Shown: positions 8,502-40,812 of the stretch, piece by piece | How the letters are laid out: each line of letters starts with the position of its first letter | Numbering within the stretch: the first letter of the stretch is position 1 | The notes under the pieces: model-generated | Databases searched by the model: none | What the model was told of the DNA's origin: nothing | Seen by the model: only the letters and a program-made list of their open reading frames with translations | NCBI GenBank assembly: GCA_050259015.1 | Contig: JBLMZV010000050.1 | Coordinates: forward strand, 1-40,812 | Source of the DNA: Candidatus Saccharimonadota bacterium | GTDB lineage: Bacteria > Patescibacteriota > Doudnabacteria > UBA920 > O2-02-FULL-48-8 | DNA: 40,812 nucleotides | Direction of reading: 5' to 3' | Made by a program: the position numbers and the translations under genes

Positions 8502-8577
8502 GGGTGCATAGCTCAGCGGTTAGAGCACGACTCTTATAAAGTCGGGGTCGATGGTTCAAATCCATCTGCACCCACCA
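8502..8577 (+). tRNA. tRNA-Ile with anticodon UAU; CCA end is encoded
   Basis: Manual cloverleaf: acceptor GGGTGCA/TGCACCC, D arm GCTC..GAGC, anticodon stem CGACT/AGTCG, loop CTTATAA (positions 34-36 = TAT), T arm GATGG-TTCAAAT-CCATC, then ACCA. Confidence 0.85.
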
Positions 8578-8708: not shown

Positions 8709-9779
8709 ATGTTACCCAGCGACCGTTTCGTGGTGTACGGCACTACCTGCAACCACAGCTTCGATCAGCGGGTTTTGGAGCTGACAAATGGCGTCCTTTC
8801 GGCGAATCTGACGTTCAGCCACATCAACCACACTACGTTCCCGGATGGCGAACCCGGATTCAAGATCCGCAAACCGGAAAAGATCCGCGGCCGCCACGCT
8901 GTGCTGTTCGCCTGCCCGGTGACCTATAAGGTCAGGGCGCAGATGAAGGACATCATCGCGGCTTGCAGCTGCCAGTACGGCGCCAGGTCCCTGCTCCTGG
9001 TCCTGAGTTTCCTCTGTTTCCGCAGGCAGGACAGGCTGAACGAACACGAGATTACCCGGCTGCGTTGGTTCATGCGGGACTTGAAGCACTGGGGCGTCGA
9101 CCGGGTGGTGGTCTGCGAGCCGCATTCCGAGGAGCATGCTCGAGCTTATGCCGACGAATTCGGGGTGGAGCTTCTGTCCGCGGATCCCACGCGCGACTTC
9201 GCCGACGCCGTCGGGGGAGTGATCGCGACGTTGGGCCGGCAGAACGTGGTGTTCTATTCCCCGGATTTCGGATCGATCAAGCGGGCCGCCCGCCTGGCCA
9301 AGCACTTCGGCTGCCCGATCGTGGCCACCCCTAAAGTCAGGGCGCATGGCAGCGAGATTGAGATCGACCGTCTGGACGCCGACGCGTTCATGGCGAAGGT
9401 CAGGGAGGCCTACAGCGGCGAGATCGAAGTCATCCCCGACGTCGAACAGGTGGCGGGCAAGCACGTGTTCATGCGGGAAGATGAGGTGTCCACGGCCAGA
9501 ACGTCGGCCAGCACCGCCGTGCGGCTCAAGAACAAGAAGGCCGCCTCGGTCCGTCTGGTCGCCACGCATCCGGTCTGCTCCCCCGGCTGGCGGGAGTATC
9601 TGTTTCCGGAAGGCAAGCCGTATCCGTTCGACCAGGTTTGGCTCGGCGATACGAGGCCCCGCGGCCGGGACGACGAGTCGGAGTATGAAGGATCCACCGG
9701 CGGGGAGGTGAAGGTGGTTTCCATGGCCCCGGTTATGGCCCGGGCGCTCAAGGAAGCCCTGGAGCGGATCGTCGATTGA
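8709..9779 (+). CDS. Divergent ribose-phosphate pyrophosphokinase (Prs)-like protein
   Basis: By eye it aligns with Prs: FPDGEPGFKI (FSDGE), FRRQDR (ARQDR), VVVCEPHS (DLH), VVFYSPDFGSIKRAARLA. The ribose-5-P loop is altered: EDEVSTART in place of DDxxDTxGT. GGAGG RBS before the ATG at 8709. Confidence 0.7.
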   Translation: MLPSDRFVVYGTTCNHSFDQRVLELTNGVLSANLTFSHINHTTFPDGEPGFKIRKPEKIRGRHAVLFACPVTYKVRAQMKDIIAACSCQYGARSLLLVLSFLCFRRQDRLNEHEITRLRWFMRDLKHWGVDRVVVCEPHSEEHARAYADEFGVELLSADPTRDFADAVGGVIATLGRQNVVFYSPDFGSIKRAARLAKHFGCPIVATPKVRAHGSEIEIDRLDADAFMAKVREAYSGEIEVIPDVEQVAGKHVFMREDEVSTARTSASTAVRLKNKKAASVRLVATHPVCSPGWREYLFPEGKPYPFDQVWLGDTRPRGRDDESEYEGSTGGEVKVVSMAPVMARALKEALERIVD

Positions 9780-13694: not shown

Positions 13695-14996
13695 ATGAAA
13701 AAGTACCTCATCATTGGCGGCATTTTGGCTCTCCTTGTGATAGTCGTTTTGGCCGCTTTTTTGACGAAGAACCCGGACAACGGCCCGACGGGTAACGTGG
13801 AGCTGGTCTGGTGGAAGACGTTCGAGGATACCACGAACGTGGAAGAGATGATCAACGCTTACCAGACGGCGCATAAAGGCGTGACGATCAAGTACGTCAA
13901 AAAGGACGTGAACACCTACGAACAGGACCTGGTGAACGCCATCGCCTCCGGCAACGGCCCGGACATCTTTACCATCCACAACGATTGGCTGCCCAAGCAT
14001 ATGGACAAACTGAGTCCGGCCCCGGCGACATTGCTTACCGAGCGCCAATACCGGGACGCGTTTATAGACGTGGTGGGGGATGACTTCGTGAAAGACGGCA
14101 AGATCTACGCGATGCCGATGAGCCTGGACGTGCTGGCCCTCTATTACAACCGGGACATCCTAAATTCTGCGGGTATTTCGGAACCGCCGAAAACCTGGCC
14201 GGAACTGGTTTCGGACGTGCAAAAAATCACCCGGCAGGATACGAGCGGCGCCTTCAGCCGGTCGGGAGTCGCGCTGGGGACTTCCAGCAACGTCAACCGC
14301 GCGGTGGACATCCTGCTTTTGCTGATGCTGCAGAACGGCACACAATTCTATTCGCAAAACCTCCAGGCGGCCACCTTCGGCCAGACCCAGAACAGCCCGG
14401 ACAATCCCAACTTCAACCCGGGTGGGGCAGCACTGCAGTTCTACACCCAGTTCGCCAATCCGGGCAAGAAGACCTATACCTGGAACGCCCGGACGGATAA
14501 CAGCGTGGACGCGTTCAGCCAGGGCAAACTGGCGATGATGATCTCCTATTCATATATGGAACCCACGATCAAGGATAAGGCTCCGACCCTGAATTGGGGG
14601 GTGGCGCCCGTCCCGCAGGTGGACTCAACCGGTCTTAAAGTGAACTTCGCGAACTACTGGGGCGAGGGGGTTTCCAAGGCTTCCAGCAAGACCAAGCAGG
14701 CGGCGGCCTGGGATTTCCTCAAATATATGGTCCAGAAGGATACCTTGGCCAAGTACTATGCCAAGCATAAGCTGGTGGCGGTGCGTAAAGATATGCTCCC
14801 TGATCAGTATTCGGATCTGGATATCGGAGTGTTTGCGGAGAACGCCTTAACTGCCAGGAGCGTCTACAAGCCTGACTCCGGGGTGTTCGAAGGCGTGATG
14901 GGTAAGGCCATCGACGACGTAGTGCTCCGGAACATCGATCCGGAAGAGGCGATAAGAAATGCCGCGCAGCAGATCACCATGACATTGCGCAAATAA
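13695..14996 (+). CDS. Extracellular solute-binding protein (ABC family 1, sugar type), membrane-anchored and orphan
   Basis: N-terminal TM anchor and a typical SBP_bac_1 pattern (VELVWWKTFED, GNGPDIFTIHNDWLPKH, YAMPMSLDVLALYYNRD). No permease or ATPase gene is adjacent. Confidence 0.85.
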   Translation: MKKYLIIGGILALLVIVVLAAFLTKNPDNGPTGNVELVWWKTFEDTTNVEEMINAYQTAHKGVTIKYVKKDVNTYEQDLVNAIASGNGPDIFTIHNDWLPKHMDKLSPAPATLLTERQYRDAFIDVVGDDFVKDGKIYAMPMSLDVLALYYNRDILNSAGISEPPKTWPELVSDVQKITRQDTSGAFSRSGVALGTSSNVNRAVDILLLLMLQNGTQFYSQNLQAATFGQTQNSPDNPNFNPGGAALQFYTQFANPGKKTYTWNARTDNSVDAFSQGKLAMMISYSYMEPTIKDKAPTLNWGVAPVPQVDSTGLKVNFANYWGEGVSKASSKTKQAAAWDFLKYMVQKDTLAKYYAKHKLVAVRKDMLPDQYSDLDIGVFAENALTARSVYKPDSGVFEGVMGKAIDDVVLRNIDPEEAIRNAAQQITMTLRK

Positions 14997-14997
14997 T

Positions 14998-15027
14998 TTG
15001 TCAGGGATAGGCGATTTGTGTTATAAT
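14998..15027 (+). promoter_or_regulatory. Putative promoter of the pilin array
   Basis: TTGTCA, 17-18 nt spacer, TATAAT (tgtgTTATAAT). Confidence 0.5.
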
Positions 15028-15044
15028 GTGGACAACTTAAATTT

Positions 15045-15437
15045 GTGACGAAACAAAAAACAACGGCAATTATAGGGGCAACTGCAAGCGGATTGCTTAT
15101 GGCTTATCCGGTTTTTGCTGCGCTTGTTACTTGCGGCGGACGGAATCAGACCGCGTGCACGTTAAGCGATATTTTCACCACTGTCGCCTTGGTCATCAGT
15201 TTCCTGCTGGGCGCGTCTTCCCTGGTGGCTATTCTGTTTATCGTAATAGGCGGGGTGCAGATGATTTTTTCCGGCGGCAATCCCAAGGCCATCGAAACCG
15301 GCAAACAGACCCTGTTTAACGCTATTTTGGGTCTGCTGATAGTGCTCGGTGCTTTCTTTATTATCAACCTCGTTTTGTCGCGGCTCTCTGGCGGCACGAT
15401 TAGCTTAACTAATATCGAGGGGTTTTTCGGAAACTAA
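15045..15437 (+). CDS. VirB2/TrbC-like mini-pilin paralog 1 (Pfam T4SS_pilin type, by eye)
   Basis: Signal/TM segment, hydrophobic helix, then the motif IGGVQMIFSGGNPKAIETGKQTLFNAILGLLIVLGAFFII (helix-loop-helix). GTG start; an alternative ATG lies at 15099. Confidence 0.7.
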   Translation: MTKQKTTAIIGATASGLLMAYPVFAALVTCGGRNQTACTLSDIFTTVALVISFLLGASSLVAILFIVIGGVQMIFSGGNPKAIETGKQTLFNAILGLLIVLGAFFIINLVLSRLSGGTISLTNIEGFFGN

Positions 15438-16081
15438 TGAAGTTGGATCCTCGTAAGTTCATACCGGTCATCATCCTTATCGCGCTGTTCGCGGTTCCGT
15501 TTTTGGCCGCAGCCCAAGCGCCCTGCTCTCAAGGCTATTCCGGAACCACCCTCTGCACCGCCCTCGGTGGTACCACTGATTATAAAGGGCTATTACAAAA
15601 GATTTTTACTTTCATAGCGGAAACGATCGGACTCGCTGCGATTGCGATGATGGTCTATAGCGGGGCGCGCATGATTACGGCCAACGGTAATCCTGATACG
15701 ATTAAGACTGCGAAGTCGGGATTTACCTGGGCGATAACCGGGTTCGTGATAGCGGTTTTGGCTTACGTGATTGTGGTCGCGATTGAGAATTTTATCGGCG
15801 TTACTAATATTGATGAAACGAGGAGGGCCCTCCAAAATCCTCTTGGCAACGAGAATTTAATGAGCTTTGCAGGAACTATTTTGAACGGCTTCGGCGCCAT
15901 CGTAGGAATCCTTGCTGTGCTCATGATCATCATAAACGGGTTCCGGTACGTCACTTCAGGGGGGAATGAGGACGCGGCTACCCAAGCCAAGTCCGGAATC
16001 CTCTGGTCTGTGGTCGGCTTGGTGGGAGTCGCTCTGGCATATGTCATCATTAAGGCAATCGGGAGTTTGCTCGGCTCATGA
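15437..16081 (+). CDS. Tandem two-module VirB2-like pilin, paralog 2
   Basis: Two copies of the module: YSGARMITANGNPDTIKTAKSGFTWAITGFVIAVLAYVIV and INGFRYVTSGGNEDAATQAKSGILWSVVGLVGVALAYVII. TAATG overlap with paralog 1. Confidence 0.75.
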   Translation: MKLDPRKFIPVIILIALFAVPFLAAAQAPCSQGYSGTTLCTALGGTTDYKGLLQKIFTFIAETIGLAAIAMMVYSGARMITANGNPDTIKTAKSGFTWAITGFVIAVLAYVIVVAIENFIGVTNIDETRRALQNPLGNENLMSFAGTILNGFGAIVGILAVLMIIINGFRYVTSGGNEDAATQAKSGILWSVVGLVGVALAYVIIKAIGSLLGS

Positions 16082-16437
16082 AAATCAACAAAAAACTTCT
16101 AGCGGTCGTGGTGCTTAACGGGTTATTCCTCGTCGGTTCAGCGGCTTTGGCTGTGAGCATACCGGACTTGGGTGGCGGCCTATTTACACAAGCGCCGGGC
16201 ACGACCTTCCCGCAGATCCTAAGGTGGGCGATCAACCTGGTATTGAGCATTGTCGGCCTGGTCTCCGTGGCGTTCCTGATTTACGGGGGATTCACCTATA
16301 TTACGTCGGGCGGCAACGAGGATAACGCGGAACGTGGCAAGAAAGCGGTAACAAATGCTATAATAGGATTGGTGGTAGTTATCCTCTCCGGCGTTATCGT
16401 CAACGTGGTGATCAATGCCTTAAACGGCCGCGCCTAA
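16078..16437 (+). CDS. VirB2-like mini-pilin paralog 3
   Basis: Signal peptide, then IYGGFTYITSGGNEDNAERGKKAVTNAIIGLVVVILSGVIV. ATGA overlap with paralog 2. Confidence 0.8.
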   Translation: MKINKKLLAVVVLNGLFLVGSAALAVSIPDLGGGLFTQAPGTTFPQILRWAINLVLSIVGLVSVAFLIYGGFTYITSGGNEDNAERGKKAVTNAIIGLVVVILSGVIVNVVINALNGRA

Positions 16438-16500
16438 TGAAACCAAGCTTATAATTATTAAAAACCAAAAGGTCGATTAAAATATTAAGAAAGGAAAGTT

Positions 16501-16875
16501 ATGAAAATTACAAAACTGACACAAATTCTCTCGGTCGTGATGGGCTTCGTGATGCTGGCTGTTCCGTTCTTTGCCGGCGCGCAGGGCCTGCGCATCCCTT
16601 CGGGCGGCAGCTTCGGCTTGCCGGACCAGGCGACTGCTTCTGACTTCATCATCTTCATCATCAACATCGCCTTGGCCATCGCCGGTTTGATTGCCGTGTT
16701 CTTCCTGATCATCGGCGGCTTCCGCTACATCACCGCGGCCGGGAACGAAGACTCCTCCGAACAGGCCAAGAAGATCATCTTGAATGCCATTATCGGTATC
16801 GTGGTGATCATCCTGTCGTTCGTGATCGTGAGAGTCATCTCCAACGCTCTGACTCGGGGCAGCGGCGGCGTGTAA
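16501..16875 (+). CDS. VirB2-like mini-pilin paralog 4
   Basis: Signal peptide ending in AGAQG, then IIGGFRYITAAGNEDSSEQAKKIILNAIIGIVVIILSFVIV. AAGGAAAG RBS. Confidence 0.8.
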   Translation: MKITKLTQILSVVMGFVMLAVPFFAGAQGLRIPSGGSFGLPDQATASDFIIFIINIALAIAGLIAVFFLIIGGFRYITAAGNEDSSEQAKKIILNAIIGIVVIILSFVIVRVISNALTRGSGGV

Positions 16876-16888
16876 GACTATCATCAAT

Positions 16889-17251
16889 ATGAAGAAAGCT
16901 TTATTCTTGTCTATGGTCACGGTTTTTGCGCTTAGCCCGGTTGTCGCGCTTGCGCAGCTGACTAATCCTAATTTAGCAGGAACGGGCTTGCCCAGTTCCA
17001 ATGACCCGAATGCAACGGCGAGCGATTGGATCTTCACTTTCATCAACGTGGCCTTGGGCGTGGTAGGGATAATCTCTGTGGCTTTCATTATCTACGGCGG
17101 TTTCCGTTACGTAACAGCCGGGGGCAATGACGATTCCTCAGAGAGCGCAAAGAAGATTATCACAAACGCTGTAATCGGGTTGGTGGTAGTAATCTTGTCC
17201 GCTGTCGTGGTCAACGTTATTATCAACGGGCTGGTTTGGCGTAGAGTGTAA
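16889..17251 (+). CDS. VirB2-like mini-pilin paralog 5
   Basis: Signal peptide ending in ALAQL, then IYGGFRYVTAGGNDDSSESAKKIITNAVIGLVVVILSAVVV. Confidence 0.8.
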   Translation: MKKALFLSMVTVFALSPVVALAQLTNPNLAGTGLPSSNDPNATASDWIFTFINVALGVVGIISVAFIIYGGFRYVTAGGNDDSSESAKKIITNAVIGLVVVILSAVVVNVIINGLVWRRV

Positions 17252-17260
17252 AAGCTTTTG

Positions 17261-17297
17261 AAAAAAACCGTTCTCCCCAAAGGGAGAACGGTTTTTG
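17261..17297. terminator. Bidirectional terminator between the convergent pilin array and the minus-strand island
   Basis: 13-bp stem AAACCGTTCTCCC-caaa-GGGAGAACGGTTT, flanked by an A-run on one side and a T-run on the other. Confidence 0.8.
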
Positions 17298-17298
17298 T

Positions 17299-18516
17299 TT
17301 ACTGAATTCCTCCTTGTCTCTTCCACTCGTCGGCCGTTATGGTCCGGTCCTTGCCGCGGACGATCTCCGTGGCAAGCGGTTCGTTCTGGAACCGCTTGGG
17401 ATCAACGTGGCGCGCCTCGGCATGGTCGTCGGTGACGTAGCTGGGCTGCACCTCGATCGTGTCCTCGTAGCCGTGCACGTTCTTGTCCTTGTGCACGAAC
17501 TCTACCTTGTACCAGCCTACCCGGACATCATAGGCGCGGTTAAACCAGCTGTTATGCTTTGAAACCGGCCCCTTGTTGACGCGGGGACCGATGGGACGGC
17601 CGTCCTTGTCGATCCAGGTCAGGTACATGTCCACGTCGGGAAGTTCCGGGCCGTCGATCTTAATCTTGCCGTGCGTGCACTTCCGGTTGGCCGGGAAATT
17701 GGCGCACCACTCGGCGGTCAGGTACGGGTTGTAGTAGCCGTAGCCGCTCGTATAAAGGTTACCGTAGAGTCGCTGGCTGTAAACTGAATAGCCGACATCA
17801 GCCCCGCCTGTATAGGTGGTGGCTGTGTAGTAGTGCGGGGCTCGCATCGCGGGTGCAGGCTCAACGTAAACAGCAGGTCCGAGCGACGCCGCGTATGCCG
17901 CAGAAGACGCTGGCAGGGGAACTATTACTGGTCTGCGCGCAGGTACGGGAGACGGAGTTGCGACTCTCGCCGAAACTGTTCCCAGCTGGTCCTCTTCAAT
18001 CTGCTCTGTTTGCGTTTGAGTGAACTCCCGGTTGACCGCGACCCGCTTCGGTGAAGTGGCTGGCGCCGATGGGACGACTGGTGTTGCGACTGTTACCGTT
18101 TCCGCGGGTGCCGCAGATTTCTTCTGTGGGACAGCTTCGACATCTGCGGTTTTCGCTGCCAGGGCTTCCCCCGAACCGTACAGGACGAGGGAGTCGCCGG
18201 CAAACCTATAACCTACGCCGCGGACGCCGCTCTCGCGGAAGATCTTCTCGATGGCCAACCTGAGGGTCGGCATTCCCTTGATGTCACCGTTGAAGGTATA
18301 ACCGACCAGCGCCTTCTGAACCTCTGTCGAGGCCTGAAGTTCGAACTGATTGGCCTCCGCCAGCGTGATCAGCACGTAGAGCACGGTGCTGCCTTTCTGC
18401 AAGGGGCGGACCAACTCCACGGTTGCCGAGAAGATCGTGGGTTCCTGAGCGATCGCCGGACCCGAACCGAAGGCGAAAGCAGCGGCAATCAAACCGACGA
18501 GTTTTTGAAACTTCAT
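17299..18516 (-). CDS. Secreted 405-aa hypothetical protein (island gene E)
   Basis: Signal peptide MKFQKLVGLIAAAFAFGSGPAIAQE and GGAGGGG RBS. Contains an N-terminal alpha/beta domain, a Pro/Ala/Ser/Val linker, a Tyr/Gly-rich segment (YYTATTYTGGADVGYSVYSQRLYGNLYTSGYGYYNPY), and a C-terminal beta-rich domain with two Cys. Confidence 0.75.
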   Translation of the reverse strand: MKFQKLVGLIAAAFAFGSGPAIAQEPTIFSATVELVRPLQKGSTVLYVLITLAEANQFELQASTEVQKALVGYTFNGDIKGMPTLRLAIEKIFRESGVRGVGYRFAGDSLVLYGSGEALAAKTADVEAVPQKKSAAPAETVTVATPVVPSAPATSPKRVAVNREFTQTQTEQIEEDQLGTVSARVATPSPVPARRPVIVPLPASSAAYAASLGPAVYVEPAPAMRAPHYYTATTYTGGADVGYSVYSQRLYGNLYTSGYGYYNPYLTAEWCANFPANRKCTHGKIKIDGPELPDVDMYLTWIDKDGRPIGPRVNKGPVSKHNSWFNRAYDVRVGWYKVEFVHKDKNVHGYEDTIEVQPSYVTDDHAEARHVDPKRFQNEPLATEIVRGKDRTITADEWKRQGGIQ

Positions 18517-18712: not shown

Positions 18713-19576
18713 CTACTCAAGCGGGGTCACCTTCAATTCAAACCCTCCTTTCCTTTGGCGGGCCAGGTCCGAGAGGTGAATCCCGGGCCGGCCTGTTTCC
18801 CAATCGTACAACCGGGTGAAGCCGTTCACCGAAGTGTAGAGCTTCTCGCAACCATCCGGCCGCACTGTCTTTTGGAAGTGCTTGTCCGGCCCCTCCTCAT
18901 CGAAGATGAAGGGGGTGCCGCGGGTGCCCAGACGGCCGAGCGCAGCCATGAACGGCTGGTCAGGGACCAGCATCCGGTAAACCCTGGCGTTGCGCTGGAA
19001 GTTGGCCTGTTCCTCCGGAGTGGCATCCTGCCAGCCAAGAGGTCCGACCCACTTGTGAAGCGCGTACCCGGCCGGATCGTGCGTCGCCGTACCCCAGACT
19101 TCGATCCGGGTCGTTTGGCACACTTCCTTGCCGGTGTCGTACCAGGACAGCGGCTCATCCTCGTCCACGTCGGTCGTGACCGGCATCGAGACGTCGCCGA
19201 ACGTCCGGCCGTAGAGGTGGTTGAGCGCTTCCTTCTCGTTATTGACCTGCTGCCGTCCGTTGTCGCCGTACTTGAGGAGCGCGCTGCGCTGGTCTTCCAG
19301 GTTGAGCGCGCCCTTCTTGGCCGAGGCAATCACCGGCTCATTCTCGGTTTGGATCTTCCCGACCGCAGCCTCAGCGTACCGTCGACTCTCGCCCTTGATC
19401 GCGCTTTCGTGGAGCTGCAACGGAGTGTCGTAACTTTTGACGAAAGGATAAACCGCGAATCGAGCGAACAGGCAAACAAACAGTACCACGACGATGCTCG
19501 TGGCTGATTTAAATATCAACCAGGCGAGCCCAGCTGCGGCAGCGATCAGAAGTAGGAGCGTAAGTATCGCATTCAT
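18713..19576 (-). CDS. Island gene D: membrane protein with two TM helices and a roughly 230-aa soluble beta-rich domain
   Basis: TM helices ILTLLLLIAAAAGLAWLIF and IVVVLFVCLFARFAVYPFV. The start ATG overlaps the stop of C (ATGA). The overlapping plus-strand ORF 18641-19507 is Arg-rich antisense noise. Confidence 0.75.
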   Translation of the reverse strand: MNAILTLLLLIAAAAGLAWLIFKSATSIVVVLFVCLFARFAVYPFVKSYDTPLQLHESAIKGESRRYAEAAVGKIQTENEPVIASAKKGALNLEDQRSALLKYGDNGRQQVNNEKEALNHLYGRTFGDVSMPVTTDVDEDEPLSWYDTGKEVCQTTRIEVWGTATHDPAGYALHKWVGPLGWQDATPEEQANFQRNARVYRMLVPDQPFMAALGRLGTRGTPFIFDEEGPDKHFQKTVRPDGCEKLYTSVNGFTRLYDWETGRPGIHLSDLARQRKGGFELKVTPLE

Positions 19577-20463
19577 GATCGCCTCCGTTCCACGCGCCGC
19601 TCCTCGGTGGCGGAAGTCGCGACCGGAGCAATTGAAGTCGTGGTGGTCGTCTTCTCCGTTGTCTTGGTCTCTTTCTTGTCCGTTTTTTCTTCCTTCTTCT
19701 TCGGTAGAAGCGCGATTACGACGATACCTACGATAGTGAAGCTCACAATAGCCGCTCGGCTCAATCTAACGTCATCCGGGTCAAAGGACCGGATCCTGTC
19801 CCAGAGCGTTACGTTCTCCTCCGGCGGGTCAGGCTTTGCTTCGGGCTGCTTGAAGCGCACCCGGAGTTCCTGATCCATGTACTTAAGGTTCTGTTCCTTG
19901 GTCCGCAGGATTTTGGCAAGCTCCTGCTGCAGCTTCGGGAGGTCGTCCTTGTCGGGCTGCGGAACGAGGAGGTTCCCTTGTCCGTCTTTCTTTTTCCCTT
20001 TGTAGGCGTCGTAGGCTTTCTGGTAATCGTGTTCCGCGCCTTTGGTGATCAGTCGTTCCTGCTCTGCGCGCCAGTTAGCGGCTGCGATTTGCAGGTCGGT
20101 GCCCACCGGATTGGTGGCGTCGTGGGAGTCGATGTCGGCCTGCGCGTGGCGGTTAGCCGCCGCGGTGGTCGAGAACGGCCAGTTGGATGCGAAGTGCTGG
20201 TGGATCAGCGGCCAGTAGCCGATCGTGACCGTGCCTGCCAGAAGCAGGACGAAGATCGCGCCGGCGACCAGGGATACCAACCTGCCGATCGAATGGTTGT
20301 ACTCCCGGAACAGGTATTCCCCGGCGATGATGACTGCGCCCGTGGTAAAGAGCATCAGCCAAAACCTGAGGAAGTTGTCCAGGAGGCCTGACAGCGAAAA
20401 GGCGATGGACAGCAGGCTGACGACGAAGAACAGAACGACGGTTGCGCCGAGTACTTTTTTCAT
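19573..20463 (-). CDS. Island gene C: membrane protein with 3 TM helices, a charged coiled segment, a fourth TM helix and a K/E/T-rich tail
   Basis: Start set at the ATG at 20463, which forms an ATGA overlap with the stop of B; the ORF-track start at 20481 is TTG. Hydrophobic helices, a QQELAKILRTKEQNLKYMDQELR coil, and the tail KKKEEKTDKKETKTTEKTTTTT. Confidence 0.7.
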   Translation of the reverse strand: MKKVLGATVVLFFVVSLLSIAFSLSGLLDNFLRFWLMLFTTGAVIIAGEYLFREYNHSIGRLVSLVAGAIFVLLLAGTVTIGYWPLIHQHFASNWPFSTTAAANRHAQADIDSHDATNPVGTDLQIAAANWRAEQERLITKGAEHDYQKAYDAYKGKKKDGQGNLLVPQPDKDDLPKLQQELAKILRTKEQNLKYMDQELRVRFKQPEAKPDPPEENVTLWDRIRSFDPDDVRLSRAAIVSFTIVGIVVIALLPKKKEEKTDKKETKTTEKTTTTTSIAPVATSATEERRVERRRS

Positions 20464-21212
20464 GCCCGCCCCCTTCGCCAATGCTTGAATATGGCAATGG
20501 CGGTTTCGATCAGCAAGTCGATCTTGATGATGTTCAGGAATGACCGCCAGCCGGACAACGCGGGAGCGCCGGGAACCGTAGCCCCGGGTTCGCGGCGGGC
20601 GACCAGGCGCTGCAGGAGCAGCCTAAAGGGATTGTCCGAGGTGACTTCCTGCCTTTCCGTCCATCGGCTCCGCAGTTCCTGGAACGCCTCCGCGATTTCA
20701 TCGCGGAAAGCGAACGGCACGTACAGAATCGTCAGAATCAGAAGGATCCAAGAGGCGAGCCAGCGCGTGGACCAGTCTGACCAATCGTTGGCCGTTTCCG
20801 GTTTTGGCGCGGTCTGTCCGAGCTCCTGGTCGGTCTGGTACTTGCCTTCCCGAAACAGGTGTAGCCGGCGCTGCCGGTTTTCCTCGATGTCCTTGAGGAC
20901 CTGATTCTTGCTGTAAGCTTCCTGGTAACTTTGGGTCACCGGGGGAGGGCCTGGCTTGGCCGTCTTGAAGTTCCAGATGAACGCCGTAAGCGTTATCAAA
21001 AACATCCAGAACAGCCAGCGGTTGTTGGTCCGCATGAAGAGGCCTAAAAACCTCCCCACGCGGGCAGCGGCCAGTTCGCCGCCGATGAATACGATGGCGG
21101 AAACCGAGCCGAACACGACGAACATCACTATCAGGGTCAGCCAGAATTGTCCGGTCAGCGCCAACACGAAGAGCGTGACGCCGATCCAGGCAAACAGAAT
21201 TCGCAGGAACAT
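20460..21212 (-). CDS. Island gene B: polytopic membrane protein with about 4 TM helices
   Basis: Three N-terminal helices, a charged loop (QVLKDIEENRQRRLHLFREGKYQTDQELG), a fourth helix WLASWILLILTILYVPFAF, and a basic C-terminus. The start lies 9 nt after the stop of A. Confidence 0.7.
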   Translation of the reverse strand: MFLRILFAWIGVTLFVLALTGQFWLTLIVMFVVFGSVSAIVFIGGELAAARVGRFLGLFMRTNNRWLFWMFLITLTAFIWNFKTAKPGPPPVTQSYQEAYSKNQVLKDIEENRQRRLHLFREGKYQTDQELGQTAPKPETANDWSDWSTRWLASWILLILTILYVPFAFRDEIAEAFQELRSRWTERQEVTSDNPFRLLLQRLVARREPGATVPGAPALSGWRSFLNIIKIDLLIETAIAIFKHWRRGRA

Positions 21213-21221
21213 TTTATCCCC

Positions 21222-21890
21222 CTACTTCCATCCGTCGAACAGGTGTTTTAGCAGGCCGTCGCCGGGCTGAGCAGGCTGCTGGGGTTTGTGACCCCAGAAT
21301 TCCAGCTGGACCTTGGCGCTGATGCCGGCCACGAACACGTCCATCTCCAGATGCGGCACGTCGAACGTGAGCTCGACGTTGACGCCGCTCGCGGGAACGC
21401 TCAGGCTCCTCTTGTTGCGGGCGGCCGCTTTGCCGTCGATCTTGAAGTCGGCGCTTGAGACCAGGGTCAGCTTGGAATCGACGCCTTTCTCCTTGGGATC
21501 GACGACGATCAGGTTCAGCCGGTAGTGGCCCGGCTCGATCTTGGTCCGTTCCGTGATCAGACGGAGCTGCGGCTGTTCCTTCTTGACCGGCGCGCTCTTC
21601 TGGACGGGCACCGTGACGGTTTTGGCGAAGCCCTCCGCCTCCGCCTGGATCTGGACGCTGTTGGCGTCCGGCGGCGTGGCCAGGGTTTCCATCACGAGTC
21701 CGCTGACGTCTGTCCGCTTGGGCGGGCCGACGTGCTGGATGCCGTCGATTGAAAACGCCACTTCGACGTTCGGTTGGGGGGTGCCGTTCTTGTAAACGGT
21801 GGCCCGCACCTGTATCTGCCTTTCGTCGGCGGATACGGCATTTAAGCCGATGACAACACGGGGACCTCTTTGCTGCTGATTCTGCGGCAT
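21222..21890 (-). CDS. Island gene A: soluble 222-aa protein with two beta-sandwich (Ig-like) halves
   Basis: GGAGGA RBS, no signal peptide and no TM helix. Alternating beta-strand pattern (IQVRATVYKNGTPQPNVEVAFSIDG..., YRLNLIVVDPKEKGVDSKLTLVSS...) with a Lys/Pro/Gln linker. Confidence 0.7.
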   Translation of the reverse strand: MPQNQQQRGPRVVIGLNAVSADERQIQVRATVYKNGTPQPNVEVAFSIDGIQHVGPPKRTDVSGLVMETLATPPDANSVQIQAEAEGFAKTVTVPVQKSAPVKKEQPQLRLITERTKIEPGHYRLNLIVVDPKEKGVDSKLTLVSSADFKIDGKAAARNKRSLSVPASGVNVELTFDVPHLEMDVFVAGISAKVQLEFWGHKPQQPAQPGDGLLKHLFDGWK

Positions 21891-21959: not shown

Positions 21960-21988
21960 AATATAGCAGAAATCGGCGTTTTTGTCAA
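21960..21988 (-). promoter_or_regulatory. Promoter of the island A-B-C-D operon
   Basis: On the minus strand: TTGACA (21988-21983), 17-nt spacer, TATATT (21965-21960). Confidence 0.6.
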
Positions 21989-22010
21989 TGAGAGAGGGCT
22001 TTGTTATAAT
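21982..22010 (+). promoter_or_regulatory. Promoter of tRNA-Leu, divergent from the island promoter
   Basis: TTGTCA (21982-21987), 17-nt spacer, TATAAT (22005-22010). The tRNA starts 23 nt downstream. Confidence 0.6.
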
Positions 22011-22032: not shown

Positions 22033-22119
22033 GCCGGGGTGGTGAAATTGGCAGACACGCAAGGTTTAGGACCTTGTGCCCGAAAGGGCGTGCAGGTTCA
22101 ATTCCTGTCCCCGGCACCA
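22033..22119 (+). tRNA. tRNA-Leu with anticodon UAG; long variable arm; CCA end is encoded
   Basis: Acceptor GCCGGGG/CCCCGGC, anticodon stem CAAGG/CCTTG with loop TTTAGGA, variable arm TGCCCGAAAGGGCGT, T arm GCAGG-TTCAATT-CCTGT, then ACCA. Confidence 0.9.
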
Positions 22120-24091: not shown

Positions 24092-25027
24092 ATGGGCGAT
24101 TTTCCTTACGCAAAAATCATAAGACAGGCTTACCAGCTGACGAAGACCAGAAAGGTTTTATGGCTGTTCGGCCTGTTTTTATTTCTGTCCGACACTCCCT
24201 TCTTGGTTTCGCTTTACCGGGTCCGGGGTTCGGCTTTCGAGGGCGGATTGGAATCGTGGTGGACGGAACTGTCCGCTCCCGGCCGTTACGGTTCGCTTCT
24301 GGCCGGGCTGGCCGTGCTTATCGCGGTCGTCGTGATGTATTTTTTATGCAAGGCCGCATTGATCATCGCCGTCAACAAATTCAAGGACCGCAAGGATATC
24401 CGCTTCGGGGAGGCGGTCAAATCCGGCCGGGAGTATTTCTGGCGGCTGCTCGGAGTTTCCGCTTCGGTTGGGGCCGGGCTGCTGATCGTGACCGCGGTGC
24501 TGTTCGTTCCGGTTGCCTACCTGGCCATGTCCCAATCCGCGGCGCGGGCCTGGTATCTCGGCGGTCTTGCGGCGGTGATTTTCCTGCCGCTGCTGGTCAT
24601 TGCGATGCTTTTGGGAATCCTGACGCCGATGTTCGTCACGCTGTTCGGGCTGAAAGTGGGGAACAGCTTCAAGGCGTCGTTCGACATGCTGGCGGCCAAC
24701 TGGTCGAGCATCCTCCTGTTGGGAATTTTCCTGCGGCTTTTGGGGCTAATCGTCTTCTTTGTCAGCCTGTTTCTGATGATTTTGATCGCCACTCCTGTTG
24801 CTATTTTAGCCAGAGTATCGTATAATACGGTAGGTTCAGCGGGTATGTACGCGATTTTCGCCCTGCTGAGCGTGATCCTGACCGCGATTTTCCTCGCGGT
24901 GCAGGCGGCGGTCGCGGCATTCAACCACACCGCCTGGGTTCTTGCGTTCCTTGAAATCGTGAAGCCCAAGAAAAGTTCGCCTGAAGAGGAAGCGGCGGTT
25001 GTGCCAGAGATGATTTCCGGCGGATAA
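24092..25027 (+). CDS. Polytopic membrane protein of unknown function
   Basis: 311 aa with about 6 hydrophobic helices. Starts 4 nt after the ftsH stop. Family not recognised with confidence. Confidence 0.6.
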   Translation: MGDFPYAKIIRQAYQLTKTRKVLWLFGLFLFLSDTPFLVSLYRVRGSAFEGGLESWWTELSAPGRYGSLLAGLAVLIAVVVMYFLCKAALIIAVNKFKDRKDIRFGEAVKSGREYFWRLLGVSASVGAGLLIVTAVLFVPVAYLAMSQSAARAWYLGGLAAVIFLPLLVIAMLLGILTPMFVTLFGLKVGNSFKASFDMLAANWSSILLLGIFLRLLGLIVFFVSLFLMILIATPVAILARVSYNTVGSAGMYAIFALLSVILTAIFLAVQAAVAAFNHTAWVLAFLEIVKPKKSSPEEEAAVVPEMISGG

Positions 25028-32055: not shown

Positions 32056-32177
32056 AATCCGATAAGGGTGGGGGCTGTGATCCGCTGTCTATCATTTGGA
32101 CGCCTTATGACAGCGGGGAGCCAGTGGCGTAACCGATCACCGAAGAGCAACCTTTATCAGGACAGGGTTGTTTTTTT
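32056..32177 (+). promoter_or_regulatory. Candidate cis-regulatory leader (riboswitch or attenuator-like) or small RNA, ending in an intrinsic terminator
   Basis: Nested stems GTGATC..GATCAC and CCGCTGTC..GACAGCGG, with an alternative ATAAGG..CCTTAT pairing. Then the terminator CAACCTT-tatcaggac-AGGGTTG followed by T7, ending 15 nt before the next ATG. Confidence 0.4.
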
Positions 32178-32191
32178 ATTTATCATTTTTT

Positions 32192-32947
32192 ATGAACAGG
32201 ATAGTCCTGATTTTTGTTATGGTAACGGCGGCCACGGCAGCCTGCCCGCTGAAAGCCCGGGCGTCAGCGATCTTTTTCGAGCAGACGCCGTTACCGACCG
32301 GCAAGCTTTTGATCACGGTAATGCTGGATACAGAAGGCGAGATGCTCAACGCTTATGAAGGCGCGGTCGTTTACGATCCCGGCAAGTTGGAGCTGGATGC
32401 GATCGAAACCGAAGAGTCGATCGTGAGCCTCTGGCCGGAAGAGCCGCATGAGCAGCCGGCGGGCCGGCTGGCATTCGCCGGCGGCACGATCGGCGGGTTT
32501 AACGGTTCGGGGAAACTCTACGCGGCCGTGTTCCGGGCAAAAGAGCCGGGTATTGTCCGCATCGAGAATCCGGCTGTTTTGAGGCACGACGGAAAGGGTA
32601 CGCCGGTCCCGGTGCGGACCTCCGCCTTAAGCGTAGGGGAGTTTAGAGTCGCTTCCGGCTTTTCTGCCGGACCGGTTCCAGAGACGGAACCAACCGCTTA
32701 TCCGACAAGGAATCCAGACGGAGAGACGCAGGCTCCCCATGGCATTTCGGAAAACGGCATTGACCCTGAGGGTCCAATCGGATCGCCGGTGTTTCGGCTG
32801 CAGGCGGAAACCCCGGAGCGGCTGCCGACGGTATTCTCTGAGCCAATCCTCCCGGTATATGCCAATCCAAAAAATGCGCTTGCGGAGATGCTGGCCGCCT
32901 GGAGAGTGCTTCGGCTTGGATTGACTTTCAGGTCCTTTATGGTATAG
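32192..32947 (+). CDS. Secreted cohesin-domain-like protein
   Basis: Signal peptide MNRIVLIFVMVTAATAA. The segment ITVMLDTEGEMLNAYEGAVVYDPGKLEL...GRLAFAGGTIGGFNGSGKLYAAVFRAKEPG matches the cohesin fold pattern. Pro/Glu-rich C-terminus. Confidence 0.6.
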   Translation: MNRIVLIFVMVTAATAACPLKARASAIFFEQTPLPTGKLLITVMLDTEGEMLNAYEGAVVYDPGKLELDAIETEESIVSLWPEEPHEQPAGRLAFAGGTIGGFNGSGKLYAAVFRAKEPGIVRIENPAVLRHDGKGTPVPVRTSALSVGEFRVASGFSAGPVPETEPTAYPTRNPDGETQAPHGISENGIDPEGPIGSPVFRLQAETPERLPTVFSEPILPVYANPKNALAEMLAAWRVLRLGLTFRSFMV

Positions 32948-38942: not shown

Positions 38943-39102
38943 AGTTATAGCAATGGTAGGTTTTGTTAGGTTCCAAGAAACAAAAATACATTAAAAATCG
39001 AGAGAAGACGAAGGAAGCTCCAAAATTGAGCTTCTTTCTGTGTTTCTTAGGCCTAAATCCAGCTTAAGAAACGCTCGTGAAACAAAAACAAAAACAAAGG
39101 TC

Positions 39103-39282
39103 ATGTCATTCGAGGAAATGCCGGAGCTCCTCACGATCCGTGAGGTGACCAAACTACTCAACGTCCATCCAAACACCCTTCGCAACTGGGAGAAAGAAGG
39201 GCTTATTCAAGTTGTCCGGATTGGCCCCCGTAAAGACAGGCGCTATAAGAAAGAGGTCATTAAGAAGATCATGTACATCTGA
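39103..39282 (+). CDS. Small (59 aa) excisionase/MerR-superfamily HTH DNA-binding protein
   Basis: LLTIREVTKLLNVHPNTLRNWEKEGLIQVVRIGPRKDRRY matches the excisionase-type HTH_17 pattern. Confidence 0.7.
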   Translation: MSFEEMPELLTIREVTKLLNVHPNTLRNWEKEGLIQVVRIGPRKDRRYKKEVIKKIMYI

Positions 39283-39287
39283 AGAAT

Positions 39288-40812
39288 ATGACACGGCCAA
39301 AGGCACAACTGCATACGGCGCCAATCAGGAAGTTTTCCTGGCTTTTGACCGTGGCTGCCCTGGCGCTCGTCTTCTCGGCTTTGGCCTGGACGAAAGTCGT
39401 GGCCGCTCCCGGCGTGCCAAAGACCATCAGCTACCAGGGCAGGCTCACCGACGCCTCCGGGAATCTTTTGGGCGGCGCGGGAACCAACTACTTCTTCAAG
39501 TTTTCCATCTGGGATAACCCGACCGTGGGAATGGGCAATCGTCTATGGCCGCTCGGCGCCCCGGGCGTCACTACCCTGAACGTCGCTTCCGGAGTATTCA
39601 ACGTGAACATCGGCGATACCGTCAATGGCTACCCCGACGCGCTGACGTACAATTTCAATGATAACGACACGGTCTATCTGCAGGTTGAGGCTTCGTCCAA
39701 CAACGTGACCTTCGAGACGCTGTCGCCGCGACAGGCAATCACCTCGAGCGGGTTCGCGATTAACGCGGGCAGCGTACTCGGCAGGACGCCGGGCACGAAC
39801 GCTAACAATCTGCTTACTCTGGATGCAAGCGGCAACATCGACATCGGCGGCCAGATCATAACCGGATCTTCGATCCAAGCCGGCACGGGTCTCATGAACG
39901 GCACGGCGGTCACGGTCAACACAGCCGGCGGGTTCACCGGCAACCTGATAGACCTGCAAGTTTCGGGCTCTTCCAGGCTGCGAGTAGATCAGGCGGGGAA
40001 TACGGTCGTCGCAGGCAACTTAGACGCAAGCGGCGCGATCCAGTCCGGCTCCTCCAACGTAAACGTCACCTTGCCCACCGGCTACATCGACGCCAACGCC
40101 ATCACGCTGACCGCTTCCGGCACAGTCGGAAGCACGGCAACCAGCTCCGGCTTGGAGGTGGTGGGCAACGGACTCACCTTGCTTAAAGGTTGTCTGGACA
40201 ACCAGCTGTTGAAATGGAATGACGCTTTGGAACAGTGGCAGTGCGCCAATGACACAGGCGGTATAGGCGGCGCCTCCACGCTGCAGGGTTCTTACGACAA
40301 CGGCAATTCTATCGTGACCACGAACGGCCGGAACATTTCGATTACGCTGGCCGATACGGCTGTTGACAGCAATTTCACGATTTCCATCGCCGACAACTCG
40401 ATCTCGACCGTTTCCATCACCCGCGCCAACGGCACTGGAGTCAATGACCCGGCGCAGCTATTGGTCTTAAGCAACCTCGATCTTGACCGAAGCATTGCCG
40501 ATGGACTGAAGATCACGTCGGCTACCGGCGGGATAGTGGACGGCATAGACGTGTCGGGAAGCAATATCACGAACGCCCTCAACATCGGACAGAACGCCAT
40601 CCTCTCTAATGGGGTGACGATTTCCTGGTCCGAGCTGAACCGGCTGGACGGATTGGACGGGCCTATCCTCGACACCAATGACGCGGTGAATACCTCCATC
40701 ACCGGGGTTGGCACTTTGACTTCCGGGACCTGGAATGCCGATATGATCGGCGTGGCTTACGGAGGCACCAACAATAACGCATTCAACGACGGAAAGTTTT
40801 TGACATATAACG
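39288..40812 (+). CDS. N-terminal 508 codons of a large secreted fibre-like surface protein. Open to the window end and absent from the ORF track.
   Basis: My own translation from the ATG at 39288 finds no stop codon through 40812. Signal/anchor FSWLLTVAALALVFSALAWTKVVAAPG, then PKTISYQGRLTDASGNLLGGAGTNYFFKFSIWDNP. The rest is Gly/Asn/Thr/Ser-rich beta-repeat-like sequence with a CLDNQLLKWNDALEQWQC motif. Confidence 0.8.
   Translation, partial: MTRPKAQLHTAPIRKFSWLLTVAALALVFSALAWTKVVAAPGVPKTISYQGRLTDASGNLLGGAGTNYFFKFSIWDNPTVGMGNRLWPLGAPGVTTLNVASGVFNVNIGDTVNGYPDALTYNFNDNDTVYLQVEASSNNVTFETLSPRQAITSSGFAINAGSVLGRTPGTNANNLLTLDASGNIDIGGQIITGSSIQAGTGLMNGTAVTVNTAGGFTGNLIDLQVSGSSRLRVDQAGNTVVAGNLDASGAIQSGSSNVNVTLPTGYIDANAITLTASGTVGSTATSSGLEVVGNGLTLLKGCLDNQLLKWNDALEQWQCANDTGGIGGASTLQGSYDNGNSIVTTNGRNISITLADTAVDSNFTISIADNSISTVSITRANGTGVNDPAQLLVLSNLDLDRSIADGLKITSATGGIVDGIDVSGSNITNALNIGQNAILSNGVTISWSELNRLDGLDGPILDTNDAVNTSITGVGTLTSGTWNADMIGVAYGGTNNNAFNDGKFLTYN

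Follow-up and report, generated by a model that had tools for sequence, protein, structure and literature searches.

What is encoded by the one block of minus-strand genes in a patescibacterial chromosome segment whose other genes all point the opposite way? The segment, referred to here as the window, is the whole stretch of DNA analysed: 40,812 nucleotides (nt) from Candidatus Saccharimonadota bacterium (assembly GCA_050259015.1, contig JBLMZV010000050.1, positions 1 to 40,812, forward strand), which GTDB places in the lineage Bacteria; Patescibacteriota; Doudnabacteria; UBA920; O2-02-FULL-48-8. The block, or island, holds a four-gene operon, A to D, and an adjacent gene E. An earlier note, made from the sequence alone, had singled these out as the only minus-strand units, and this holds: all annotatable genes outside the island lie on the plus strand, and the long minus-strand open reading frames (ORFs) near 39.5-40.7 kb are antisense to a long plus-strand ORF leaving the window. 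We tentatively read A to D as a lineage-restricted complex that would span the cytoplasmic membrane and serve in the recognition of, or adhesion to, surface ligands, a reading to which we would give somewhat less than an even chance.

Gene A (21222-21890, 222 amino acids (aa)), gene B (20460-21212, 250 aa), gene C (19573-20463, 296 aa) and gene D (18713-19576, 287 aa) follow one another on the minus strand as a single, translationally coupled transcription unit, as the earlier note had proposed. The tight junctions it described are present: the A-B spacer is 9 nt (TAG-GGGGATAAA-ATG) and the B/C and C/D junctions are ATGA overlaps, with C starting at the ATG that overlaps the stop codon of B and not at an upstream TTG. 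The starts of B, C and D are each preceded by a G-rich Shine-Dalgarno site inside the upstream gene. A consensus scan also recovered the claimed TTGACA-N17-TATATT promoter, with a TG extension, at 21988-21960 (minus strand), in a region with 8 promoter-like sites against 1.3 expected; the claimed GGAGGA Shine-Dalgarno site is found at 21902-21897 (minus strand), 6 nt upstream of the ATG of A. Two further features had gone unmentioned, namely an intrinsic terminator of A-D with a 13-bp stem and a T-run (18705-18677, minus strand) and a promoter of gene E, TTGACA-N17-TATACT with TG (18637-18609, minus strand). Because the terminator lies directly after D and E (17299-18516, minus strand, 405 aa) has its own promoter, A-D form a self-contained unit and E a separate one. 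It is gene E, and not the operon as had been stated, that converges on the neighbouring array of VirB2-like pilin genes.

The boundaries of the island are those first described. On the array side lies a bidirectional terminator serving both E and the pilin array, a perfect inverted repeat with 15-nt arms (17263-17277 and 17282-17296, acting on both strands), a 4-nt loop and A/T runs. On the other side, towards FtsH, the conserved boundary is tRNA-Leu(TAG) (22033-22119, plus strand). Its promoter (TTGTCA-N17-TATAAT, 21982-22010, plus strand) stands back to back with the operon promoter, the -35 regions overlapping. This arrangement is kept in two related loci, L001 and L010, where the layout of promoter, terminator and second promoter is also repeated.

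All five genes are conserved in other genomes, i.e. they are more than chance ORFs. L001 and L016 keep the complete order A-B-C-D-E, so the possibility that the gene set and its order are absent from every related genome falls away. In the seven loci with context (L001, L010-L012, L014, L015 and L016) D lies between FtsH/tRNA-Leu and E with the pilin array, in the order FtsH, tRNA-Leu, two to four genes, D, E, pilin array and with the same orientation, and in L013 the layout matches up to an E-like gene at the contig end. In all loci examined that continue beyond D, E accompanies the operon. The carriers are Doudnabacteria-like genomes, and the lineage-specific, envelope-associated nature that had been suggested for the island is supported. 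In L006, an E-like ORF (13925-15112, minus strand) starts with a NuoL-like segment, after which comes a stretch of X (masked or N bases). The start is probably a scaffolding or masking artefact, which may explain why no D gene is seen in that locus.

The family is rare. In a full search of 1.84 billion representatives with a HMMER profile, the D family came to 12 clusters, a word-indexed search of a 5.8-billion-protein index returned three entries for D and two for A, self included, and a 14-sequence D profile gave five matches only. Nothing further was found by a GTDB genome pattern scan with the D profile, and nothing at all by JGI metagenome scans with distant D members and with E, by tblastn of D against 50,697 phage records or tblastn against plasmids, or by viral contig scans with D, B and E.

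The island also changes fast. Against L001, the identity is 65% for A, 51% for B, 37% for C, 63% for D and 40% for E, a range of 37-65% that contrasts with 92% for FtsH and 77% for SBP. Against L016 it is ~30% for B, 27% for C, 25% for D and 27% for E (28% for A, comparing the A of L001 with L016), while the flanking FtsH, RNase III and LexA stand at 82%, 79% and 78%. By these values the island evolves roughly three times faster than its neighbours.

The genes upstream of D are interchangeable. A second set (type 2) occupies the same position in L014, L015, L013, L007, L008 and L010, although in L010 it is without the Ig-like (immunoglobulin-like) gene. Its products are an Ig-like protein, a helical protein whose C-terminus carries a transmembrane (TM) segment, and a larger multi-TM coiled-coil protein, none of which is detectably related to A, B or C by BLAST or hhalign; hhalign gave just two signals between the types, both weak, one linking C2 to C3 and the other matching C to the N-terminus of fusion proteins described below. 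The types ignore phylogeny. With FtsH identities of 89-92%, L010 (type 2) stands as close to the window and L001 (both type 1) as these two stand to each other, and the D proteins of L015 and L016 are 43% identical yet their cassette types differ. D and E are the constant part of the locus and their upstream partners behave as exchangeable cassettes. In L015, two minus-strand ORF calls at 8738-9670 look like antisense noise where the type-2 coiled-coil gene would be expected, so that gene may be decayed or mis-assembled, and the D gene of this locus has extra N-terminal TM helices.

What, then, do the constant and the exchangeable parts look like? The earlier note had described A as a soluble protein with two Ig-like beta-rich halves and neither signal peptide nor TM helix, B as having about four TM helices and a charged loop, C as having four TM helices, a long charged segment and a K/E/T-rich tail, and D as two TM helices followed by a soluble domain. 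Hydropathy and structure prediction bear out all four descriptions. In D, the TM segments are at residues 4-22 and 28-46. Its AlphaFold2 model, built from a 14-sequence alignment, has a predicted local distance difference test (pLDDT) score of 85.7; in it, a TM hairpin is followed by a stalk formed by a helical hairpin (52-121) and by a head with a beta-sandwich fold (127-285). When this model was compared with the PDB using Foldseek, the sole matches below 1e-3 were three chains of 6ygq, the N-terminal PllA/LecA-like lectin domain of EclA (E 1.4e-4 to 5.4e-4, probability 1.0, TMt 0.59-0.61), and the next match was a TNF-like jelly roll at 1.7e-2. In a weak hhalign profile alignment, for which the LecA sequence was verified against the PDB, three motifs of D fall in register with LecA (PyMAlLvrxG with CGALVMKIG, AvND with IYND and NxGGFxV with NNSGSFSV). 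LecA also ranks first among non-members for a hidden Markov model (HMM) of the head only (E 0.03, 35-sequence set). The predicted fold of the D head is LecA/PA-IL-like. A VirB8- or VirB10-like identity for D was also considered and rejected on its fold, which is neither NTF2-like nor a VirB10 barrel.

D differs from these lectins in its setting. LecA, PllA and EclA-N are small soluble proteins, whereas D shares with them a small beta-sandwich but is anchored in the membrane on a helical stalk and carries a conserved pair of cysteines. These residues, C153 and C243, are near-invariant in the family alignment, which suggests that the head is disulfide-stabilised and hence extracytoplasmic. The head is the most conserved part of D, with 70-88% identity compared with 23-38% for the TM region. 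In LecA, residues D100 and N107/N108 are Ca2+/galactose ligands; in the weak hhalign register, nine of ten distant D members keep Asn at the N107 position, and eight of those ten keep Asp at the D100-equivalent. In the sub-clade of the window there is in addition a 6-residue insertion relative to LecA.

Several proteins lie at the edge of the D family. Matches of the head HMM to D-like proteins in L007 (E 2) and L008 (E 0.084) are suggestive by rank only, and these proteins are not counted as members. The most distant D-like protein, P0015 (E 2.4e-4; L017, 6808-7785), appears to hold two LecA-like repeats. It is found on a 12.8-kb contig of small ORFs, a plasmid-like context unlike that of all other D members, with a TraG/VirD4-like gene one gene further on (TraG-D_C 5.8e-4, below the cut-off), then Replic_Relax and a faint primase match.

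The nearest functional analogy to D is provided by the lectin-like adhesins and minor pilins of Saccharibacteria, which are surface proteins with lectin-type folds in epibiotic Patescibacteria and have been proposed as binders of host glycans (PMC10633639; PMC11623550). Unlike D, these have VCBS, L-type and PLL-type folds and are anchored as pilins or are secreted adhesins; they come from another class of Patescibacteria and have no sequence relationship to D.

Gene A encodes a different kind of beta-sandwich protein. Its AlphaFold2 model (2-sequence input, pLDDT 74.9) contains two sandwiches, at residues 12-95 and 110-197, with pLDDT ~80-89, and a conserved C-terminal tail (GDGLLKHLFDGWK) that is disordered in the model. 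Foldseek returned 310 matches at E<=1e-3 to Ig/macroglobulin (MG) domains, including C3, TEP1 and GH2, with intimin D0-D1 at 5e-6 and invasin at 1.2e-5, so that the modelled fold is best called generic Ig/macroglobulin-like. A thus has the Ig-like beta-sandwich fold of Big_1/MG domains (intimin, invasin, C3/TEP), but its match to Pfam Big_1 (PF02369; E 4.6e-6, 27.1 bits) is below the gathering cut-off of 34.9, and the L016 orthologue scores 16.2 bits. Intimin and invasin are surface proteins, whereas A has no signal peptide or anchor. Given the missing signal peptide, and with the L006 homologue lying between a cold-shock domain and B, A is most likely a cytoplasmic protein and not a surface one.

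That homologue is part of a 725-aa ORF (L006, 16375-18552, minus strand) made up of a cold-shock domain (Pfam 7.9e-8; NCBIfam CspE 6.5e-7), Ig repeats, a homologue of the second domain and tail of A, and a homologue of B. The tail motif GxxxHLxxGW sits exactly at the A/B junction of the fusion. Because the two are fused in L006, A is expected to work with B. The joining of a cold-shock domain to a polytopic membrane protein is in itself unusual. An ORF in L007 (18130-19251) has a similar architecture, with faint cold-shock matches (NCBIfam CspE 0.017, CspC 0.15) and no detectable homology to A.

The hydropathy profile of B has four to five hydrophobic segments, among them ~1-19, 25-43, 64-82 (sub-threshold) and 151-169; residues 83-149 form a charged loop, and the C-terminal region is rich in Arg and includes an amphipathic helix. 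As Arg-rich loops follow TM2 and TM4, the N-terminus is probably inside and the ~65-aa charged loop outside. The motifs MRTNNRW, LFRxGxYxTDxEL and YVPFAFRDE persist to L016 and L006, where the C-terminal half of the fusion is 26% identical to B. A MotB/ZorB-like stator was rejected as an identity for B, which has no TM Asp and only a 15-bit match.

C has TM segments at 4-22, 34-52, 63-81 and 234-252, a ~150-aa helical, charged domain between the third and fourth of these, and a K/E/T-rich tail; a homologue in L006 is 26% identical. Lysines at the N-terminus and in the tail argue for a cytoplasmic tail and an extracytoplasmic long domain. In two proteins of the D family, P0006 (seen on 23 contigs) and P0011, D is joined to a multi-TM coiled-coil protein, and the first TM helix of D there replaces the last of C. 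From these fusions, D can be expected to work with its upstream polytopic neighbour. The earlier note had taken the coupled genes as subunits of one complex. The fusions support part of this claim, linking A to B and a C-like protein to D so that the subunits probably act together; the assembly of all four would be a further step, which we infer.

The product of E begins with a Sec-type signal peptide (AIA/QE); a linker rich in P/A and a stretch rich in Y/G come before a beta-rich domain at the C-terminus, which contains a conserved Cys pair (CANFPANRKC). Residues ~41-115 gave weak matches to the N0 domain of PilQ (E 0.02-0.8), and one homologue a Pfam STN match at 1e-3. The N-terminal domain thus bears a weak likeness, with all matches below threshold, to the STN/secretin N0 domains of PilQ, GspD and TonB-dependent transducers, but E has no secretin core. 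Such a likeness is unexpected, since the lineage is regarded as having neither outer membrane nor PilQ (PMC6744442).

The absence of a recognisable family, as asserted in the earlier note, therefore holds by sequence but not by fold, given the LecA/PA-IL-like head of D and the generic tandem Ig domains of Big_1/MG type in A. Searches of Pfam, NCBIfam, PHROGs, PADLOC and the PDB with A-E found nothing above threshold, and the same was true of the cassette genes of the relatives in Pfam, NCBIfam and PADLOC. Profiles of all five families, A to E, gave only noise in the PDB, save the weak PilQ-N0 matches for E. No PHROG match fell below 0.01 for A-E and none in BFVD reached E<=1e-3. The reported lack of Walker A, HExxH or similar motifs in A-D was confirmed.

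Together with the fusions and the predicted folds, these features can be assembled into a tentative picture. Cytoplasmic A, a tandem Ig-like protein, would dock its C-terminal tail on the N-terminus of the 4-TM protein B, to which it is fused in some relatives. C would span the membrane four times and display its ~150-aa helical domain outside the cell. D would be anchored beside C by its TM hairpin, and the helical hairpin stalk would lift the LecA/PA-IL-type head off the membrane. There the head may bind a glycan of a host cell or of the environment, or another envelope component, with B, C and A as the membrane and cytoplasmic base. The separately transcribed E would be a secreted partner, and A-E together would make up a cell-surface module that evolves fast, resembles a cassette and keeps a fixed place in the chromosome, next to the VirB2-like pilin array. 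A role in recognition or adhesion is suggested because the locus is fast-evolving and cassette-like, and because lectin-like proteins matter in cultivated Patescibacteria, where host binding and epibiotic growth depend on, or are linked to, lectin-like surface proteins and adhesins (PMC10633639; PMC11623550). Attachment to a host is plausible from the predicted lectin-like fold of D.

A number of observations weigh against this picture. The likeness of D to LecA is at the level of predicted fold only. LecA and PllA are outside the top 50 Foldseek matches of D, among which EclA-N alone is present, and the hhalign match to LecA (E 2.3e-3) has a probability of 12%. While the fold is that of the PA-IL/LecA family, the sequence profiles do not place D in it: Pfam at E<=1 gave no family for D or for any of 14 family members (PA-IL matches 0/14), and the PDB profile search with the D family did not retrieve LecA, PllA or EclA. 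In the sub-clade of the window, G252 and R275 align to D100 and N107 of LecA, in a low-confidence register. Because these positions are Gly and Arg, the LecA-type sugar site is probably absent from the D of the window. The head is conserved and not hypervariable, which differs from what would be predicted of a simple arms-race adhesin. Hydropathy, the positive-inside rule and the logic of the fusions are the whole basis of the proposed topology. The fusions link just the pairs A-B and (C-like)-D among the four proteins, and the cytoplasmic Ig domains of A have no obvious adhesion role.

If the picture is correct, its novelty would lie in a set of dedicated, previously undescribed partners of a membrane-anchored lectin-fold surface protein, belonging to no described sequence family. 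A large part of bacterial diversity belongs to the Patescibacteria, whose mode of life appears to be attachment to other cells. Molecules that choose and hold the host have been assigned in a few Saccharibacteria only, and the operon is a concrete candidate. If a host glycan proves to be the ligand of D, the locus would serve to mark host range genetically within the clade. The family is tiny, however, its members are uncultivated, and unannotated membrane operons are common in such genomes.

The explanation that best survives beside the recognition complex is that the island is an assembly, anchoring or tip-adhesin module of the neighbouring VirB2-like, T4SS-like (type IV secretion system-like) pilus, with B and C as a membrane platform and D and E as pilus-associated ectodomain proteins; we consider this doubtful, and neither for it nor for the other rivals below did any positive evidence rise above threshold. 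The array consists of five genes (15045-17251, plus strand), two of which were tested and match Pfam T4SS_pilin at 4e-7 and 1e-20, and all five of its L001 orthologues carry PF18895. The island adjoins such a five-gene array in every locus with context, L006-L008 included. That adjacency says little, though, because the whole LexA-to-SMC region (~35 kb) is collinear in all relatives, and transcription is convergent, with separate promoters and terminators. Both the patescibacterial T4SS (MPF-FATA-like), found in the same phylum, and the island are envelope systems suspected of host interaction (PMC12102498; PMC10633639). Patescibacterial VirB2-like arrays, of which there are 441 in 383 assemblies, have no recognised adhesin (PMC12102498), a gap that the island might fill.

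No recognisable parts of such a machine were found in the island. In Pfam, NCBIfam and PDB profile searches, A-E match none of VirB3, VirB4, VirB6, VirB8 or Prg/Trs, and for B, C and D no VirB3/VirB6/VirB8/VirB10 or Prg/Trs/Tra relatives were found. The 40.8-kb window contains no VirB4/VirD4-type ATPase, its sole FtsK/HerA-type match being a bona fide FtsK with a gamma domain. PilB/C/M/N/O, TadB/C and prepilin-type proteins likewise gave no Pfam or NCBIfam match for A-E. The confident match to parts of T4SS, type IV pili, Tad or phages that would have counted against the earlier note is absent. The likeness of the N-terminal domain of E to the STN/secretin-N0 domains of pilus machines and the TraG/VirD4-like gene on the plasmid-like contig of P0015 would fit a pilus function, but both sets of matches are below curated thresholds. 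The link between island and array is one of adjacency. A more ambitious proposal, that the locus encodes an undescribed trans-envelope apparatus, with at least two cassette types around a constant D-E, which acts as the host-recognition or adhesin module of the patescibacterial VirB2-like pilus/T4SS and whose swapping sets host specificity, seems to us rather doubtful.

The fusions also allow the complex to be read as a transmembrane sensor, in which the D head would detect a ligand and signal through B and C to cytoplasmic A. They would join a ligand-binding type of fold, predicted to lie outside, to a protein inside, and the A-type protein of L006, possibly also that of L007, carries a cold-shock domain of the nucleic-acid-binding kind. 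The A of the window has no such domain, however, the operon encodes no regulator, and the island proteins contain no kinase, cyclase, helix-turn-helix, anti-sigma or protease domain. We regard a sensor as unlikely.

Gene sets without detectable homology that replace one another at a fixed locus among congeneric genomes, the window and L001 having type 1 and L010 type 2, are what might be expected of a membrane-embedded anti-phage defence or exclusion module at a variable hotspot beside a tRNA gene, the alternative raised in the earlier note. A weak PHROG 'Sie-like' match for C (0.013) and a weak PADLOC ZorB match for B point the same way. A PADLOC scan of 15 island proteins yielded no match at a meaningful score, with ZorB at 0.0033 for B (15 bits, 46 residues), Csx18 at 0.053 for D, CSD_V at 0.0033 for the L006 fusion and none for the other 12, and so no positive evidence for defence emerged from it. 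The ZorB-matched segment of B, TM3, has no charged residue such as a MotB-type Asp, and no nuclease, ATPase, NAD-ase, protease or other effector signature is present. D and E are kept across all variants, the D head is strongly constrained, and the phage, plasmid and viral-contig searches gave no relatives. We think a defence function very unlikely.

That the island is cargo of an integrated mobile element or a prophage remnant at tRNA-Leu, as an opposite-strand block next to a tRNA gene with a slightly raised GC (guanine plus cytosine) content (0.58-0.60 compared with a window mean of ~0.55) might suggest, is highly improbable and already largely refuted, as it contains no integrase, recombinase or phage gene, has no att sites, flanking direct repeat or tRNA fragment, lies on the wrong (5') side of tRNA-Leu with which it shares a back-to-back promoter region, is found at an unchanged position in every relative, as far out as those with 70-82% FtsH identity, and has no match in phage, plasmid or viral collections.

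The surroundings of the island are those of a chromosome. The genes of the window include IF-2, FtsK, RodZ, RecA, LspA, LexA, ComM, SBP and the five VirB2-like pilins, as well as FtsH, a YidC-like gene, RNase III, SMC, TrmD, RluD, RNase Y, NusA and ClpP. In a collection of 185,579 species, the nearest genomes are metagenome-assembled genomes, two of them labelled Candidatus Doudnabacteria, with identities of 78-81% for LexA and 72-75% for ComM, and they share the LexA-ComM-NTP-transferase-SBP-pilin gene order with the window. The YidC-like gene, which follows FtsH (24092-25027, plus strand, 311 aa), has a sub-threshold YidC (60KD_IMP) match (24.9 vs 35 bits) and diverges at the pace of the island, being 57% identical to its counterpart in L001 and 29% to that in L016, where FtsH is 92% and 82% identical.

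Three further observations were made elsewhere in the window. A tRNA-Ile with the anticodon TAT (UAU) is found at 8502-8577 (plus strand) and is kept in four related loci, L005-L008. In most bacteria the AUA codon is read by a lysidine-modified CAU tRNA, and a UAU tRNA-Ile is uncommon. A c-di-GMP-II riboswitch (Rfam RF01786) at 32061-32147 (plus strand) scores 60.2 bits against a gathering score of 53.5, and directly downstream of it is an ORF of 259 aa (32168-32947) without a Pfam match. Near the end of the window, a small ORF (39040-39282, plus strand) resembles, by eye, an excisionase/MerR-type helix-turn-helix protein, and the ORF at 39303-40812 (plus strand), which runs off the window and has a signal-peptide-like start, probably encodes a large secreted surface protein.

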